Below are positions 14,588-55,675 of a stretch of DNA of 64,000 nucleotides, piece after piece. Numbering within the stretch: the stretch's first letter is position 1; each line of letters opens with the position of its first letter. The notes under the pieces were generated by a model. The model was not told the DNA's origin. It worked only from the letters and a program-made list of their open reading frames with translations, and ran no database searches. This stretch comes from Longimicrobiales bacterium (GTDB taxonomy: Bacteria > Gemmatimonadota > Gemmatimonadetes > Longimicrobiales > Gaopeijiaceae). The translations under genes and the position numbers were made by a program. The stretch is from NCBI GenBank assembly GCA_965248195.1, contig CBDFIQ010000001.1, forward strand, positions 576,001-640,000. The letters run 5' to 3'.

Positions 14588-14665
14588 AGCGGATCGCCCT
14601 ACCCACCCCTGACGGGTGGATGTAGAAGACTGTTGGAGGAGGACGGCGGGTCGCCTTCTGGGGAG

Positions 14666-16383: not shown

Positions 16384-17759
16384 GGTCAAGTCCCGATTTG
16401 TGTGTAAAAGCGGAGGAAGCTCCTCGCCTTCGGCTAGGCTGCTTGGGCGACCTCCTGTTTCTGGAGGAGTGAGAGGTCGAGGTAACGCCGGTCGCCCCAG
16501 ACGTGTGTGGTCCTGAGTGCGACGGCCGTGATGAGCCTGAGGGCGCTGGCCCGGTCCGGGAAGGCGCCGGCGGCCTTGATCCTGCGTTTGATCTCGCCGT
16601 GCAGCCGCTCGAGGCTGTTGGTGGTACGCAGCCGGGGCCAGTGCGCCTCGGGGAACGCGTAGAACTGCGTCGCTGCCCCGAAGCCCCGCTCCAGGACCTC
16701 CACGGCCTCGGGCAGCTCCTTCTTCCAGCGTGCGCCGAACTCGCCCAGGAGCTTCTTCGCCTCGGCGAGTCCGGATGTCTGGAAGATCACCGAGACCTCA
16801 CGCGCCACGCGCTTGCGTAGGCGGTGGGGGACCCTCGCCCCCACATTACGCTGCAGATGGACCGTACACCTCTGACGGCGTGCCTCGGGCAGGAAGCGGC
16901 GGACCGCAGCTGCCAGGCCTGCGTGCTCATCGGCGATCACGAGCTCGACACCGCCGAGGCCGCGGTCCTGGAGTTGCTCGAGGAGCTCCGACCAGCTCTG
17001 CTGCGACTCCTCAGCGCCCAGCGTGACGGCCAGGAGCCGTCGGTGACCCTCAGGGCCCACTGCATACGCCACGAGCGCACTCACGTTCTCGACTTTGCGG
17101 GCCCAGCGGGCGTCCAAGAACGTGGCGTCCAGGTACAGATAGGGGTGAGGCCCCTCGATCGGCGCACGGCGCAGCCCTTCCACGGCCTCGTCGAGCCGTT
17201 TTGCCACACGACTCACCGTCGAGCGCCCAACACGCTCGCCCATCAGCGCCTCGGTGACGTCGCCCATCTTGCGCTGTGACACGCCGCTCACATACGCCTC
17301 GACCATCATCTCGTCGAGCTCGGGGCTCCTGCGCTGGTAGCGGCCGATCACGTCGGCCGGCGAACCGTTGTCCCGGCTCCGGGGCATGGCGACCTCGATC
17401 TGCCCCAGGCTCGTCAGCAGCCGCCTCAGGTATGTGCCGTTCCTATGGTCCTTCCGGCTTCCCACCCGCTCGAAGCGGCGTGCACCTACCATGGCCTTCA
17501 GCTCCTCTTCCAGCACCATCTCGAGCGTCAGCCGGATCGCGCCTTGAAACAGCTCGCGCAAATCATCGCGTAGCTCGTCTTGCGTGGCCCGACCGATCTC
17601 CACAATCTCTTGCATCGGAAGCTCCTCTCCGGTTCCGAGCCTGCTCTGCAGACCCGGACTCCCGGGTTCATGTGACAGTGAACAACAACAGAGGAGCTTC
17701 CGTTTTTCTTTCCCTCCTGTCCAGCTTATCCGCTTTTACACAAATCTAGGGACACTACC
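16384..17759 (-). mobile_element. IS256-family insertion sequence 1 (1376 bp)
   Basis: Imperfect 31-bp IRs at 16384-16414 and 17729-17759; 9-bp TSD ctccctcag at 16375-16383 and 17760-17768. Confidence 0.93.
16434..17615 (-). CDS. IS256 family (Mutator-like DDE) transposase
   Basis: YLYLDAT, IADEHAGL, QRCTVH, RTTNSLERLHGEIKRR. Confidence 0.95.
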   Translation of the reverse strand: MQEIVEIGRATQDELRDDLRELFQGAIRLTLEMVLEEELKAMVGARRFERVGSRKDHRNGTYLRRLLTSLGQIEVAMPRSRDNGSPADVIGRYQRRSPELDEMMVEAYVSGVSQRKMGDVTEALMGERVGRSTVSRVAKRLDEAVEGLRRAPIEGPHPYLYLDATFLDARWARKVENVSALVAYAVGPEGHRRLLAVTLGAEESQQSWSELLEQLQDRGLGGVELVIADEHAGLAAAVRRFLPEARRQRCTVHLQRNVGARVPHRLRKRVAREVSVIFQTSGLAEAKKLLGEFGARWKKELPEAVEVLERGFGAATQFYAFPEAHWPRLRTTNSLERLHGEIKRRIKAAGAFPDRASALRLITAVALRTTHVWGDRRYLDLSLLQKQEVAQAA

Positions 17760-19273: not shown

Positions 19274-20284
19274 ATGAACACAGTCCTCCAAAGGCTCCCG
19301 CTACTCGGGATTGTAATCGTCGCTTCTGGCTGCGACAACGTAGAATGGGGCGGCGTGGAGCTGGGGCTGCGTTCGCCGTCCGATGGCCCGGTTTCCGAAG
19401 CCTCAGCAGAAGTGGAGGAGGTCGTCGAGAACCCCGTTCTGGACAACCCGCCGATGGGGCCGGTCCTCTACCTGGGTCACCGAGCCGGGGGGGAAGCGAT
19501 TCTAGTCGCCGTAGCGGAGATCCGGCCCGACGGTCTTTCCCTGCTGGAGGGGGTCGGCTCCGTCGAAGCGAGCAGATCGTTCATGGCCGAACACCTTACG
19601 CCCGGCCTGGAATTCACGCTGTTTTCCGACGGGGCACGGGTCGGCAGATTGACGGCCGAGAGGTTCTCGGTGGACGGGAGATATTGCAGCGTGCGACCCC
19701 AGATCCGGGGCCCCATCGAGTTGACGCCGGCCGCGGCGACGGTCCAGAGGTTTCTCGCCCTTCCGACGCGGGAGGGGAGCGCCTTCGAGTACGGGGCCTA
19801 CTCTCCGGTCGTCCCGACCCGGGACCTGCGGGTAACTTCACTCACGACTATGCAGCAGGTCATTCCCGCCGTCGGTGCACTATGGCCCGTATCAGTGCTC
19901 GGCATCCGGCAGGACGTCCAGATGTTTCGGGCCCGGTCCGGCGGGGCGCCGACCGTGGTCGCAACCTTCGTATACGCCGACGATCTCGGCGTGGGGCCGG
20001 CGGCCGTTGGAGCCTACTCCGTCTTCCTCGCCTCCGACGACGACGGGACGGGCTACAGAGGCACATATGTGGACTACCGGTTGTTCTCACGTGACGGAAA
20101 GGGTGCCCCACGCTATTTCGACCACCTGGACGTCGACGGGGACGGAAGCGACGAAGTAGTACTCGAGGTCATGGGCGAAAACTCCATGTGGCTCTCCACG
20201 CTGGGTCGGCAGGGAGAATCTTGGGTGGAGGAGTACCGCGACCCATGTGGGCTTCCGCCTGGGTCTCCAGAGCCGGCCCGCTGA
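19274..20284 (+). CDS. hypothetical lipoprotein
   Basis: Lipobox VASGC after a hydrophobic stretch; C-terminal DVDGDGSDE Ca-binding-like motif. Confidence 0.7.
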   Translation: MNTVLQRLPLLGIVIVASGCDNVEWGGVELGLRSPSDGPVSEASAEVEEVVENPVLDNPPMGPVLYLGHRAGGEAILVAVAEIRPDGLSLLEGVGSVEASRSFMAEHLTPGLEFTLFSDGARVGRLTAERFSVDGRYCSVRPQIRGPIELTPAAATVQRFLALPTREGSAFEYGAYSPVVPTRDLRVTSLTTMQQVIPAVGALWPVSVLGIRQDVQMFRARSGGAPTVVATFVYADDLGVGPAAVGAYSVFLASDDDGTGYRGTYVDYRLFSRDGKGAPRYFDHLDVDGDGSDEVVLEVMGENSMWLSTLGRQGESWVEEYRDPCGLPPGSPEPAR

Positions 20285-20292
20285 CGCCGTAA

Positions 20293-20597
20293 AGAAGGCT
20301 GCTGAAGGAGTACAGCGGGTCGCGCACAGGGCGCTTGTGCGCGTTCAGACAAGGAACGACGACGAGGCGTAGCGACGCTACTCCGAGGAGGAGAGACGCA
20401 GGATCAACCGCACAACCGCCCTGTGCCCACGACCATGAAGGGCATGATCTTACACGTTGAAGGGTTGCGGTGGCACGACCCCATCTCCGTTGTTGGAGCT
20501 CCTAGCCATAGCTACGGCTATGGCGTCGTCGCTCCGCCTAGGATATGGGACCGTGGCATCCGCAACGCGGCCCACTGTACTCCTTCAGCAGCCTTCT
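20293..20597. repeat. structured dispersed repeat (MITE-like or ncRNA), copy 1
   Basis: Perfect 23-bp terminal IR agaaggctgctgaaggagtacag...ctgtactccttcagcagccttct, with two internal long hairpins. Highly similar to 50203-50505. Confidence 0.88.
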
Positions 20598-20610
20598 AGG
20601 CGAGCCAGGC

Positions 20611-21507
20611 ATGCGGCGGTCGGTCAACTGGTTCCTCTTAGCGACCCTGGTCGGCTGCGACGCGTTCTCTGGCCAACGGGTTCCCGCCGGGGCTGAGCAG
20701 CCCGAACCCTCGGGGGCGAGTTACCCCTTCCAACTGGTAGACGCCGCAGGCGTGCGACACACGTTCGACACCGCCCCCCGAAGGATGGTGTCTCTGGTCC
20801 CGTCGGCCACGGAGGCGCTTTTGGCGATGGCCCTGGCCGATCATCTGGTCGGCCGAACCGACTACGACCGCATGCCCGAGCTCGCCGGTCTGCCATCGGT
20901 GGGCGGCGGCCTCCAGCCTAACCTGGAGATCCTGGTATCTCTCGATCTCGATCTCGTCATTCGCTTCGCGGGTGATTCCGACCTGGCTACCGCCGAACGC
21001 TTGACTGAGTTGGGGATTCCCCACTTCGCCGTCCAGCCCGACGGCATAGAGGATGTTCTGTCCATCATTCGCGACCTAGGAAGGATTACGGATGCGTCAG
21101 GCGTGGCCGACGCAATGCTCCGTGAGATCCGTGACGCCCTCGACGACGTGGCTCGCCGCGTGGACGAGTTGCCCGAGCCCCGCGTGGTTTACCTCCTGGG
21201 CGGCGATCCCCCGTGGGTGGCCGGCCCGGGTACCTACATCGATGAGCTCATGGCGCTCGCTGGCGGGAAAAACGTTTTCGCTGACCTGGCCACGCTGTAC
21301 GCTCCGGTGAGTATGGAGGCTCTCCTCGATCGGGATTTAGACCTCATTCTCCTCTCCAACGGACTGACGCCCCCAGCGTCCCTCGCGCATGTGGCGAGCG
21401 CTGTTCCACCGGCCTCCGTGGAAATTCCCGGGCCTGGGCTCGGACAGGCCGCCCGGGACATTGCGCGCCTGATTCATCCTGGAGCTTTCGACGAGAGTCC
21501 CCGATGA
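20611..21507 (+). CDS. helical-backbone ABC substrate-binding lipoprotein (BtuF-like)
   Basis: Lipobox LVGC; PRRMVSLVPSATE, LVGRTDYD, GTYIDELMALAGGKN. Confidence 0.85.
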   Translation: MRRSVNWFLLATLVGCDAFSGQRVPAGAEQPEPSGASYPFQLVDAAGVRHTFDTAPRRMVSLVPSATEALLAMALADHLVGRTDYDRMPELAGLPSVGGGLQPNLEILVSLDLDLVIRFAGDSDLATAERLTELGIPHFAVQPDGIEDVLSIIRDLGRITDASGVADAMLREIRDALDDVARRVDELPEPRVVYLLGGDPPWVAGPGTYIDELMALAGGKNVFADLATLYAPVSMEALLDRDLDLILLSNGLTPPASLAHVASAVPPASVEIPGPGLGQAARDIARLIHPGAFDESPR

Positions 21508-32138: not shown

Positions 32139-33595
32139 GATGGTGTCCCGCTGACAGTTGAAGGTGGTGGCTCCGGAGAGTCTCCTTGTTAGCCTGCCTT
32201 TCTCATTTCGGCAACCGGTTCATGGTCGTCGAGGTGGGCCCTGAGCATCCAGAGCTGGTCGTAGCCGATGATCCTCCGGTAGCTCTTCTCGGTCTCCACG
32301 AACGAGGCCGCAGCCCAGCGCAAGGCCATCGCTCCGTTCTTCCAGTTGGTCACCCTGCGGGTCTTCTGTCTTACGCCCGAGTGGGTGCTGTCGATCAGGT
32401 TGGTCGAGCCCAGGCACTTCCTCAGCCGCGGCGGGAGGCCGAGCCGGTTGATCGTGAACATCTCGCTGAGGCCTTCGCGTAGGCTGGCCGAGGCCGAGGG
32501 GTGGTCGCGCTCGAGCCATCGGGCGAGCTGCTCGAGCTTCTGCTCGCCCTGCTTCGCGTCCAGCTTCATCGCCGCCCGGAACGCCGCCTTCACCTGAGGA
32601 TGCTGATCCTTCGGCAGATGACCCAGCACGTTGCGGAGCTTGTGGTTGCGGCAGCGCTGGATGGGGTGACGTTGGCCGAACACCTTCTCGATCGCCTTCC
32701 TGAGCGCTTTCGAGCCATCGATCACGAACAGCCGCCGCCTGCCCGGGTCCAGGCCGCGCTCGACCAGATCCTCTAGGAGCGCGCTGGTCACCTCGGCGTT
32801 CTCACTCGCTCCTTCCCTCACGCCCAGCACGTGCTTCTTTCCGTCTGAGTCCACGCCTACCGCAGCAAGCACGTGGTGCGAGCCCATCTGGATCCCGTCC
32901 AGGTAGATCACCAGGAGGTCCCACGCATCCAGCCGGCGCTCCATCAGCTCCTTCAGCACGCGCTCCGAGGCCTCGACCGTCTCACGGCTCACCGCCGACT
33001 TGCTCACCCCGACCGTGTCGGCCATCTCACCGATCACACGGCCGTACTTCCGCGTGCTCACCCCCGCCATCAGGACCTCGAGCATCCGATCCGCCACGGC
33101 GCCCGGTCTCCGCATCGCTGCGTACGCCGGCACCTCGACCTCGCCACCCTCCCCGGCGCCCCGGCGCCTGAGCCGTGGCCGCTCCACACGCACCTTCCGG
33201 TCCGACAGGTAAACCACACCACCCTGCCGGCCATACCACACCGTGTCGTCTTCCGCTCGTGACCGACCTGCCTGCTTCACGCCTGCCACACCCTCGGCGC
33301 TCATCTCCAGCACCGCTTCGATCGTCGCTCGTCCCATCACCTGGATGACTTCGTCGATCGCGACCTCCGTCTGCTCCACGAGCTCAAGCATCGGAAGCAG
33401 AAACTGCCCCTCCCGCTTCAGGAACTCCCTGATCGCGCGCTTGTCCGCCCGATCCCTTACCTCGTACGTTCTCTTCATCGTGGTGGCTCCGTGTTGGGGT
33501 TTTTGCCTACCCGAGCCTATCGGCCCGGGACCCCCGGAGCCACCACTTCTCTTTCTCCCCTATCAGGAACCTTCAACTACGGTTGGGACAGCTTC
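32139..33595 (-). mobile_element. IS256-family insertion sequence 2 (1457 bp)
   Basis: Imperfect 27-bp IRs at 32139-32165 and 33569-33595; 8-bp TSD gcgggagc at 32131-32138 and 33596-33603. Confidence 0.92.
32189..33478 (-). CDS. IS256 family transposase
   Basis: IYLDG, VIDGSKAL, QRCRNHK, STNLIDS. Confidence 0.93.
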   Translation of the reverse strand: MKRTYEVRDRADKRAIREFLKREGQFLLPMLELVEQTEVAIDEVIQVMGRATIEAVLEMSAEGVAGVKQAGRSRAEDDTVWYGRQGGVVYLSDRKVRVERPRLRRRGAGEGGEVEVPAYAAMRRPGAVADRMLEVLMAGVSTRKYGRVIGEMADTVGVSKSAVSRETVEASERVLKELMERRLDAWDLLVIYLDGIQMGSHHVLAAVGVDSDGKKHVLGVREGASENAEVTSALLEDLVERGLDPGRRRLFVIDGSKALRKAIEKVFGQRHPIQRCRNHKLRNVLGHLPKDQHPQVKAAFRAAMKLDAKQGEQKLEQLARWLERDHPSASASLREGLSEMFTINRLGLPPRLRKCLGSTNLIDSTHSGVRQKTRRVTNWKNGAMALRWAAASFVETEKSYRRIIGYDQLWMLRAHLDDHEPVAEMRKAG

Positions 33596-47366: not shown

Positions 47367-47604
47367 TGGACGATCCTCCCCTTTCTTCAACGGCCTTCTG
47401 GTACGACCGGCGTGAATTGACGACACCCAAAATGTCACGCGCGAGCGCCAAACGCCATTGAGCCGATAGGAGCTATCTGGAAAGCTCCTCGCGGTGAGGA
47501 GGAGGCGCAGTTACTTATTTCTATTCGTGTGTCGACAACAAGCGACGGTTATGTGCTGAATCCCATGCACCAACCGCGGCGACACAAAGCCGACAGGAGG
47601 ATTT

Positions 47605-48824: not shown

Positions 48825-49385
48825 ATGGAGCGGATCGAAGGGGGCGACGATCGGGCCCTGGGCGAGCTCTACGATCGTCATGGTGCCGTGATGTACTCCC
48901 TCGCCAAATCCATCGTCTCGGAGCCAGCAGATGCAGAGGAGGTCGTGGCTGATGCGTTCCTTCAGATCTGGCGTGGGGCCCAGCGGTACGATCGGGGTCG
49001 GGCCTCCGTTGGCGCCTTCCTCGCCGTCGTCACCAGAAGCCGGGCTCTTGACGTGGTGCGCGCGCGGCGGCGGCGTAACGCGGCGGAGGGCCGGGCTGCC
49101 GCCTGGAACGAAGGCTGGCCGGCCGGCGCCCTGTCCGCCTCGGATCCGACCCCGGATCGCGCCCTCGAGCTCAGCGAAACATACGCCGTCGTGCGCCGGG
49201 CGCTCGACGCGCTGCCGGAGTCCCAGAGGGAGGTCATCTTGCTCGCATATTTCGGCGGCTACAGCCAGAGTGAGATCGCGGCTCGACTCTCGGAGCCGCT
49301 CGGTACCGTGAAGACGCGGGTGCGTACTGGAATGCAAAAGCTCCGTGAGGTGCTCTCCCCGTACGCCCCCGGGGTGGAATCGTGA
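48825..49385 (+). CDS. ECF sigma-70 factor (SigK-like)
   Basis: AEEVVADAFLQIW, LAYFGGYSQSEIA, PLGTVKTRVR. Start uncertain. Confidence 0.88.
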   Translation: MERIEGGDDRALGELYDRHGAVMYSLAKSIVSEPADAEEVVADAFLQIWRGAQRYDRGRASVGAFLAVVTRSRALDVVRARRRRNAAEGRAAAWNEGWPAGALSASDPTPDRALELSETYAVVRRALDALPESQREVILLAYFGGYSQSEIAARLSEPLGTVKTRVRTGMQKLREVLSPYAPGVES

Positions 49386-50203
49386 ACCCGAGGGACTGGA
49401 CGGAGATGACTGCGGCCTACGTCCTGGGCTCCTTGGACCCCGAAGATCGAGCCTCGTTCGAGGAGCGCCTCGCCTCAGATCCCGAGCTCGAGCGTGACGT
49501 AGAATCCTATCGGGAAGTCGTGGGTGGCCTTGCCGGGGCGGCGCCCCTGCATGCGCCGCCCGCGGCCCTGAAGGAACGCATCCTGGTCGAGGCCCGGGGC
49601 CGAATGGAGTCACCGCCGTCGCCTGCGCAGGAGCCTCCTGGGGAATCGCATGGGCGAGGGGCGACGCTCCCTTGGCTGCTAGCCGCCGCCGGGGTTGTCC
49701 TCAGTCTGGGTCTCGGGATCGCCTATCAACGCATGCGAACGGACAACACCTCGCTGCAAATCGCCTACGACCAAGTGGAAACGGATAACGCCTTCCTACG
49801 GATCGCCTACGACCGAGTTGCATCCGATCTCGAAGCCCGTGATTCCCTCCTCGCGACGTTCCTCGGGCCCGACGTGCGAACGGCGACCCTGGCGGCGACC
49901 GGTCGACCTCCGTCCGCCCGGCTGTTCTGGAACACCACCACCGGCTCGGTCGTGATGGCGGCGTTCGACCTACCGCCGGCCGCGGCCGGCCGCATTTATC
50001 AGCTCTGGGGGATCGTGACCGGCCTCGACCCAGTGAGCTTCGGTACCTTCCAGACCGGAGCCGACGGGACGGCCATTTTCCGAAGCCCGGTGCCGGAGGG
50101 CATCGAATTCGAGCTCGGGGCCGTCACGGAGGAGCCCGCCGGGGGATCGCCCCAGCCGACATCCACACCCTTCCTTGTCGGAGCCTGGTCCACAGCGCTA
50201 TAG
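49382..50203 (+). CDS. anti-sigma factor (RskA-like)
   Basis: AAYVLGSL, one TM segment, YQLW, AVTEEPAGGSPQPT; overlaps the sigma stop. Confidence 0.88.
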   Translation: MNPRDWTEMTAAYVLGSLDPEDRASFEERLASDPELERDVESYREVVGGLAGAAPLHAPPAALKERILVEARGRMESPPSPAQEPPGESHGRGATLPWLLAAAGVVLSLGLGIAYQRMRTDNTSLQIAYDQVETDNAFLRIAYDRVASDLEARDSLLATFLGPDVRTATLAATGRPPSARLFWNTTTGSVVMAAFDLPPAAAGRIYQLWGIVTGLDPVSFGTFQTGADGTAIFRSPVPEGIEFELGAVTEEPAGGSPQPTSTPFLVGAWSTAL

Positions 50204-50505
50204 AAGGCTATTGAAGGAGTACAGCGGGTCGCGCACAGGGCGCTTGTGCGCGTTCAGACAAGGAACGACGACGAGGCGTAGCAACGCTACGGCGAGGAGG
50301 AGAGACGCAGGATCAACCGCACAACCGCCCTGTGCCCTCCACCATCTAGGGCATGACCTTACACGTTGGTGGGTTGCGGTGGCACGGCCCCATCTCCGTT
50401 GTTGGAGCTCCTAGCCGTAGCGAATGCTATGGCGTCGTCGCTCCGCCTAGGAGCTAGGACCGTGGCATCCGCAACGCGGCCCACTGTACTCCTTCAATAG
50501 CCTTC
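50203..50505. repeat. structured dispersed repeat (MITE-like or ncRNA), copy 2
   Basis: Terminal IR gaaggctattgaaggagtacag...ctgtactccttcaatagccttc; colinear with copy 1. Confidence 0.88.
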
Positions 50506-55588: not shown

Positions 55589-55642
55589 TCCCTGTCTGGA
55601 CGCGCACCATCGCCGGGGCACCCACGCCGCCAGGCGTGGGTC

Positions 55643-55675
55643 GCACGACCCGCCGTACTCTTTCAACAGCCTTCT
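55643..55675 (-). repeat. solo terminal fragment of the 305-bp repeat family
   Basis: The reverse complement agaaggctgttgaaagagtacggcgggtcgtgc matches the left end of copy 1 at 29 of 33 positions. Confidence 0.75.

Follow-up and report, generated by a model that had tools for sequence, protein, structure and literature searches.

The repeated element described here is very probably a non-coding MITE of 303 bp, with ends that match those of IS1182-family insertion sequences (IS). An IS of this kind has likely mobilized it, by cut-and-paste and into CTAG-like sites that often lie at stop codons. Two copies lie in the window, the whole 64,000-nucleotide stretch of DNA that was analysed, which belongs to a Longimicrobiales genome (G000; 91.8% complete). 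They are colinear (92.8% identical over 304 nt) and intergenic, and each follows directly on a stop codon (TGA for copy 1, TAG for copy 2), just as an earlier note on this DNA had described them. The note's account of the structure was equally accurate: the terminal stem has the compensatory GC/AT change, and inside it lie the two long arms, each with its apical hairpin, and the gga(a/g)cgacgacg motif in inverse placement. Copy 1 begins 9 nt past the TGA (20282-20284) of the upstream gene. With the invariant outer G and C counted, the exact limits of the two copies are 20294-20596 and 50203-50505. The features of the window are as follows:

14625-14654, + strand: solo, decayed type A end
19274-20284, + strand: gene preceding copy 1, encoding 336 aa without an NCBIfam family
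20294-20596, + strand: copy 1, full element, 303 bp with the outer G and C (20295-20595 if the target duplication is 4 bp)
20294-20315, + strand: left terminal inverted repeat of copy 1, type A (IS1182-type end, by its match to IS ends)
20324-20426, + strand: arm 1 of copy 1, a long stem with tandem G-A zipper and apical GTAGC..GCTAC hairpin
20427-20463, + strand: central loop of copy 1, 35 nt, the most variable part
20464-20566, - strand: arm 2 of copy 1, the inverted counterpart of arm 1, with its G-A zipper on the - strand
20575-20596, - strand: right terminal inverted repeat of copy 1, a perfect mirror of the left, CTGCTG variant included
20596-20599, no strand: right flank of copy 1, in sequence CTAG, the family target
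20611-21507, + strand: BtuF/TroA-like ABC substrate-binding gene, its start 14 nt beyond copy 1
47377-47398, - strand: solo, decayed type A end
49382-50203, + strand: anti-sigma factor gene, its TAG stop completed by the first G of copy 2
50203-50505, + strand: copy 2, full element, with terminal repeats at 50203-50224 and 50484-50505
55590-55674, - strand: truncated left part of the element, a type A end with an optional hairpin insert

In copy 2 the terminal repeats carry a CTATTG variant, again on both arms. The zipper of arm 1 consists of single Watson-Crick pairs between GA/GA steps and reads on the + strand; in most of the divergent homologues a loop of 3-4 nt stands in place of the 35-nt central loop. 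The longest stop-free frame of the element is about 100 codons, with no ORF of note and no transposase ORF. An ATG within copy 1 (window 20545-20611) shares its reading frame with the BtuF-like gene and could lengthen the product of that gene by 22 residues, a feature limited to this sequence variant.

The earlier note had proposed looking for further copies in the genome and its relatives. G000 holds 24 full copies of 303-406 bp, the length differing through optional hairpin inserts, as well as solo ends and collapsed hairpins by the dozen, of which the window contains three. The element was found in 20 of 41 genomes searched, including 10 of the 11 of the same genus; the body was matched in 19 of 301 genomes of the phylum, and 69 of 71 loci with the exact end motif came from Longimicrobiales or Gemmatimonadota. 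Two kinds of terminal repeat occur in G000, the 22-bp type A on 20 copies and type B on four. The two are unrelated, sharing about half of their positions, while the body they enclose is the same and meets either type at the same base on both sides. Neither exact type A or B ends nor the arm motif occurred in viral contigs (0 for each), where a shorter A-type pattern gave no match accompanied by an arm or a transposase, and a search of plasmids gave no match. Type B ends are plentiful in another genome (G351, 41 of them) and in genus g165, around rearranged bodies of 235-424 bp, with no helper found. A third kind of solo end, with the outer part of type A and a G-rich inner part like that of type B, is present in G000 at C2:754579, 1029324, 1732249, 2462093, 2614923 and 2671811.

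The element is mobile, as its filled and empty orthologous sites demonstrate. From six relatives, 60 copies were taken with their flanks; six were without resolution at both ends and 54 were used. Three of these loci had no G000 orthologue, two were filled in G000 and three differed by large indels. The other 46 aligned to G000 sites that contain no full element; two of those sites hold a collapsed remnant. The filled allele exceeded the sum of element and empty site by 0-3 nt in 25 of the 46 cases, and the commonest excess was 2 nt (10 of 46), the length that a 301-bp element with a 4-bp duplication gives. At the copy 1 site all five of five relatives were empty or held remnants, among them a collapsed type A hairpin in G011, an empty site in G009, and type B-like remnants in G004 and G005. 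The copy 2 site was without a full element in G005 and G006. Insertion polymorphism as expected of a MITE, with both filled and empty sites, extended to the level of strains. Several alleles in public contigs skip copy 1 (runs X5 and X8), and alleles skipping copies were seen in two to three studies. The cleanest strain-level empty site is that of a copy designated e21, skipped by an allele in three studies (321 + 2 nt, no letters shared); its two extra bases are not a duplication.

Autonomous elements with matching ends were brought up by searching 201 genomes of the family with an IS5_4 transposase. Together with the empty sites, they support the proposal of the earlier note that the element is a MITE mobilised in trans. 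The autonomous IS are 1.2-1.5 kb long, occur in genomes of the same family, and agree with type A at 12-16 of their 17 outermost bases; those with type A-like ends (L240, L242, L243, L244, L246 and L500) are without exception flanked by YTA. At two metagenome loci a type A-like end lies beside the same IS1182-type transposase. This protein, with domains DUF772, DDE_Tnp_1 and DDE_Tnp_1_6, scores 270 bits against the IS1182 model NF033551 (cut-off 270) and 177 against IS5_4 (cut-off 140), and 638 homologues at E <= 1e-50 were counted among 8000 candidates scored. The two-arm body is present in four of the five genomes with this IS, bearing ends like those of the resident IS; the genomes that hold both the helper IS and homologous elements are G342, G336, G349 and G381. 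Two of the G342 copies have CTAG on both sides, and one pairs a left-type with a right-type IS end. At one G342 locus (L617, G342:C65:37400-37900), a two-arm element whose CTAG flanks are intact and whose IS ends are one left-type and one right-type adjoins part of another zipper arm. The earlier note had named a match to a known family of IS ends as one result that would refute its reading, and the IS1182-type ends are such a match.

Two search results nonetheless count against the IS1182-type reading, one for the cognate transposase and one for type B ends. Searches of G000 (91.8% complete) gave no match to IS1182, DUF772, Y1/RAYT or reverse transcriptase; they did not turn up the cognate transposase even as a remnant (best E 0.59), nor did the 11 same-genus genomes give a close match to it, and we therefore infer its action on these copies only from the identity of the ends. 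Judged by their spacing and by the absence of the transposase, none of 21 inverted end pairs in G000 evidently encloses a transposase. Type B ends were not found on any IS, either in 30 + 19 loci or among the DUF772 and IS630 loci. The body has no DNA match to the interiors of 13 IS loci and is thus not a simple internal deletion of the IS. We suggest that the helper transposase may visit this lineage only at times, which would leave the copies here mostly stranded. Two other candidate helpers were rejected because their ends differ from those of the element: the resident IS256, in agreement with the earlier note, and an 820-bp IS5-family element, in which only a short CTGTT-containing core is common and lies out of register.

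Duplications of 4 bp are made by a related IS1182-like element, as its recent burst in genome G433 shows. Of 31 loci examined there, two were without both ends; 24 of the remaining 29 copies carry an identical 4-bp duplication, CTAG in 22 of them. The flanks of the MITE are biased to YTA-element-TAR, and since this target contains TAG, upstream stops are often rebuilt by the first bases of the element. A perfect 4-bp duplication, however, is present in only 5 of 76 copies, which, like the two non-duplicated bases by which the e21 empty site differs, is a point against an IS1182-type MITE. The earlier note had reported no clear target-site duplication. For the two window copies this stands (flanks AAAG/CTAG and ATAG/CCGA; with AAAG at 20291-20294, the duplication of copy 1 is not intact), but the family as a whole does have a recognizable target, which is CTAG-like. 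The first outer flank pair is complementary in 23 of 76 copies as compared to 31.8 by chance, less often than expected (p about 0.004). Left and right dinucleotides are identical in 12 of 76 (null 12.4), a comparison not used against duplication, since it would have no power if all sites started as TA.

We favor an explanation in which the duplications have probably been lost by decay with survivor bias, the surviving copies being those in which the duplication would be damaged on at least one side. A rather unlikely alternative is that mismatched flanks arise at insertion itself: bases of the donor flank would be carried as an overhang and ligated into the target gap, leaving target sequence on one side and donor sequence on the other. 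Donor-flank carry-over of this kind is a feature of piggyBac. In its favor, at five of seven non-canonical G433 IS sites one flank is CTAG and the other differs from it by a single base, with IS bodies 99.5-99.9% identical, the MITE empty-site pairs with an excess of 2 nt often keep the target dinucleotide on one side only, and e21 carries its two non-duplicated bases. The other two non-canonical G433 sites, however, are exact duplications, and carry-over predicts independent flanks, at odds with the shortage of complementary first outer pairs, which fits survivor bias. Several insertions also predate species splits and would have had time for decay, which further counts against carry-over. 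Apart from the MITE, the five of 29 young G433 copies with a mismatched 4-bp duplication (among loci L550-L583), always with CTAG on one side, may show how IS1182-like enzymes handle non-canonical targets.

The two ends of a copy change together. The 22-bp terminal inverted repeats are perfect in 53 of 76 copies. Among 66 type A copies (two with an arm indel were left out), 56 variants are on both arms, 28 are one-sided and none are discordant; the 28 arm mismatches compare with 127.5 in arm shuffles (minimum 105 of 10,000), with the caution that the genomes compared are kin and shuffle p-values consequently overstate significance. The 46 perfect type A copies use 19 different arm sequences, copies one base apart in the body can differ by mirrored arm changes, and hybrids between A and B ends number 0 of 78 copies. 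Arm-to-arm copying by template switching is perhaps the simplest account, and the correction of inverted repeats by this route has a precedent in the available part of PMC5941160. The folded arms would bring both ends together, and a change in one end could then be copied to the other by template switching or conversion; the same copying would also let a new end type, captured once, spread to both termini. Plain template switching would tend to erase mismatches, yet fixed ones persist at positions 23 and 27, beside the mirrored zone, as does the non-Watson-Crick zipper, and template switching is thus not the whole story. The bodies, for their part, are apparently mosaics: 489 of 570 site pairs fail the four-gamete test. 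The closest relative of a copy is not its ortholog, which ranks 10-33 of 77. Recombination between copies may have produced these mosaic bodies.

Beyond the genus, divergent two-arm homologues across the class keep the Y-shaped fold of 94 pairs. In an alignment of 22 sequences (59% mean column identity), 92.8% of cells were paired, compared with 75.8% in shuffles and 37-46% in slid controls, and 71 pairs showed double changes. The covariation that the earlier note had wished to see checked is beyond that of shuffles, as measured among kin sequences and on a structure taken from that alignment itself. Within the element, conservation is highest in the zipper, where tandem GA steps are separated by single pairs; it matched on the + strand of arm 1 in 14 of 22 sequences and on the - strand of arm 2 in 11 of 22. 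The single pairs switch from C-G to G-C, but the GA steps are kept. Sheared pairs can be formed by tandem GA. The ends of these homologues differ from lineage to lineage. Those of the G030 homologue are the ends of IS5_4-like elements (L504 and L239) over 17 bases, those of the G316 homologue have a 10-base core common to IS1182-like elements of G016 and G006, and one-arm forms of 165 bp, in which some 50 nt correspond to arm 1 (82% identity), carry the same 17 end bases as IS630-family elements (L647 and L648). Tentatively, and with more doubt than confidence, we suggest that the conserved unit may be the folded G-A-zipper arm itself and not the transposon end, the arm being a passenger that survives the loss of its helpers, re-armed with the ends of arriving CTAG-targeting transposons (IS1182, IS5_4-like, IS630) whenever one end was captured and then copied along the stem. 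It would then be a selfish structured DNA moving between transposase families, its zipper either protein-bound or strand-specific. At L648 (G381:C250, near 1283-1301) an IS630 and an IS1182-type element abut at one shared CTAG, a layout able to hand the end of one family to its neighbor.

The element is also oriented with respect to genes. In G000, 19 copies between same-strand genes are co-oriented with them and none opposed, with three copies in divergent and two in convergent gaps; in relatives, 38 are co-oriented, four opposed, six in divergent gaps, one in a convergent gap and five uncalled. For the genus, 57 of the 61 copies that lie between same-strand genes follow the direction of transcription, and convergent gaps are depleted (3 of 73). 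Genes were called by a hexamer script trained on G000, less reliable in distant genomes, and the divergent homologues had no such bias (6 vs 4). The IS1182-type reading leaves the bias in the genus unexplained. By replication strand, 18 copies are leading and five lagging, which accounts for orientation less well than transcription does, because the lagging copies still follow genes. Copies in operon junctions would be transcribed, and one orientation may simply be better tolerated. An anti-Shine-Dalgarno cause was rejected: flipping the element left the predicted accessibility of the downstream start the same (0.28 vs 0.28). Nor did any promoter or terminator account for the orientation.

These patterns could also suggest a structured RNA of use to the host, a Y-shaped fold acting in polycistronic mRNA (in processing, stabilization or the tuning of downstream translation), for which stems, zipper and orientation were kept and which mobility only spread. 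We consider this distinctly unlikely. The kept pairs with their many double changes and the alignment with transcription are what such a module would show, and at 11 sites the downstream start has a predicted accessibility of 0.42 without the element but 0.28 with it. Orientation-dependent mRNA effects of ERIC and RNase III cleavage of Correia elements are reported in the portions available of PMC3049150 and PMC2229807. Covariation, however, is strand-neutral and does not in itself show a functional RNA. Stem mismatches are balanced (36 G-U vs 46 A-C), with no G-U preference on the sense strand, and the sense fold is the more stable in just 13 of 22 sequences. Folding z-scores are -11.25 for RNA of the + strand, -11.57 for RNA of the - strand and -10.98 for DNA of the + strand, and none of 100 shuffles was as stable. 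The zipper of one arm is on the strand opposite to that of the other, like a DNA dyad, and the sites turn over, leaving many collapsed remnants. That a flipped element gives the same predicted accessibility also argues against such a module, and a scan of the element for promoters or terminators found no consensus. Rfam gave nothing at gathering score in the window or in eight homologue loci (best weak match E 4.4). The undescribed structured RNA that the earlier note had considered is not shown: no Rfam family was found and covariation is strong, but mismatches are balanced and both strands fold equally.

The other suggestion of the earlier note, a REPIN-like element, is largely refuted. In that case a hairpin doublet would travel in single-stranded form, mobilized by a RAYT/HUH transposase, and its symmetry would be restored after insertion, a restoration from an asymmetric intermediate that the available part of PMC3116915 proposes for REPINs. 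The intergenic location, symmetric ends, collapsed singlets and GTAG in the apical hairpins would all suit it. Against these, Y1_Tnp is absent from G000 and present in only one of 11 same-genus relatives, and Y1 loci of the order carry other repeats. The GTAG is paired inside a stem, and the ends match those of DDE transposons, being non-palindromic IS-type repeats in place of two inverted short REP palindromes. Convergent gaps, moreover, are depleted and not enriched. In a sister family (f2), the Y1/RAYT-like genes at L091, L092, L095-L097, L099 and L100 have inverted repeats of their own, unrelated to the element, and are probably a REPIN system.

Among described systems, the IS1182-type MITE closest in description is MITEPye1 of Paracoccus yeei, reported with ISPye18 (IS1182 family), which has IS1182-like ends, 4-bp repeats and a long stem-loop (PMC11578231, available in part). 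Both elements are non-coding and intergenic, with IS1182-like terminal repeats, a long stem-loop, presumed mobilization in trans and target repeats of 4 bp, in ours probable from the net insertion length. Compared with the description available in PMC11578231, ours differs in its length of about 300 bp, branched two-arm fold, 24 copies and mostly lost duplications, as well as in having two end types on one body and a helper not found in G000. It resembles IS1182 and IS5 elements (NF033551, NF033581) in end sequence, YTAR/CTAG target and an insertion length of +4 bp, but is without a transposase, and its body is without a match to IS interiors; a 4-bp repeat is also given for ISPse1 in the accessible text of PMC3281130. 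Pneumococcal BOX (ISSpn2-like ends) and RUP (IS630-like ends), Correia/NEMIS and ERIC are likewise modular, folded MITEs with IS-like ends, which often supply stop codons, have optional internal segments and affect mRNA (PMC3049150 and PMC2229807, in the parts available). As those parts describe them, each is tied to one IS type, whereas here one GC-rich arm occurs with IS1182, IS5_4-like and IS630 ends. Symmetric ends, a hairpin, lineage persistence and singlet remnants are shared with REPINs/RAYTs (PMC3116915 and 10.1101/119743, each available in part); unlike the REPINs described in those parts, the element has DDE-type ends, a CTAG target, no RAYT and no enrichment between convergent genes.

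An IS1182-type MITE is thus a known kind of element; what stands out here is the evidence for a core common to the ends of three transposase groups, the quantified mirroring and the orientation bias. The literature searched, with subscription journals and ISfinder outside its scope, held no account of these features or of this family, nor of any prokaryotic MITE whose body trades the ends of one IS family for those of another. The common picture of a MITE is a shortened copy that depends on a single helper transposase and does not outlast it. In this family, one folded core appears to have lasted across a bacterial class through changes of its ends from one transposase family to another, and both ends of each copy evolve together. 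An end-swap mechanism, if true, would explain how non-autonomous elements survive the turnover of their helpers. The family also offers a test set for template-switch correction of distant inverted repeats, for the handling of target DNA by IS1182 enzymes, and for the effect of a 300-nt hairpin inserted between co-translated genes.

Some other repeats of G000 are worth recording. The window encodes two different IS256-family transposases (16434-17615 and 32189-33478), and one IS256-type element of 1376 bp dominates the repeats of the genome. A stretch of 3140 bp is common to the starts of the two contigs (C1:1001-4140 and C2:1-3140) and is possibly an assembly overlap.
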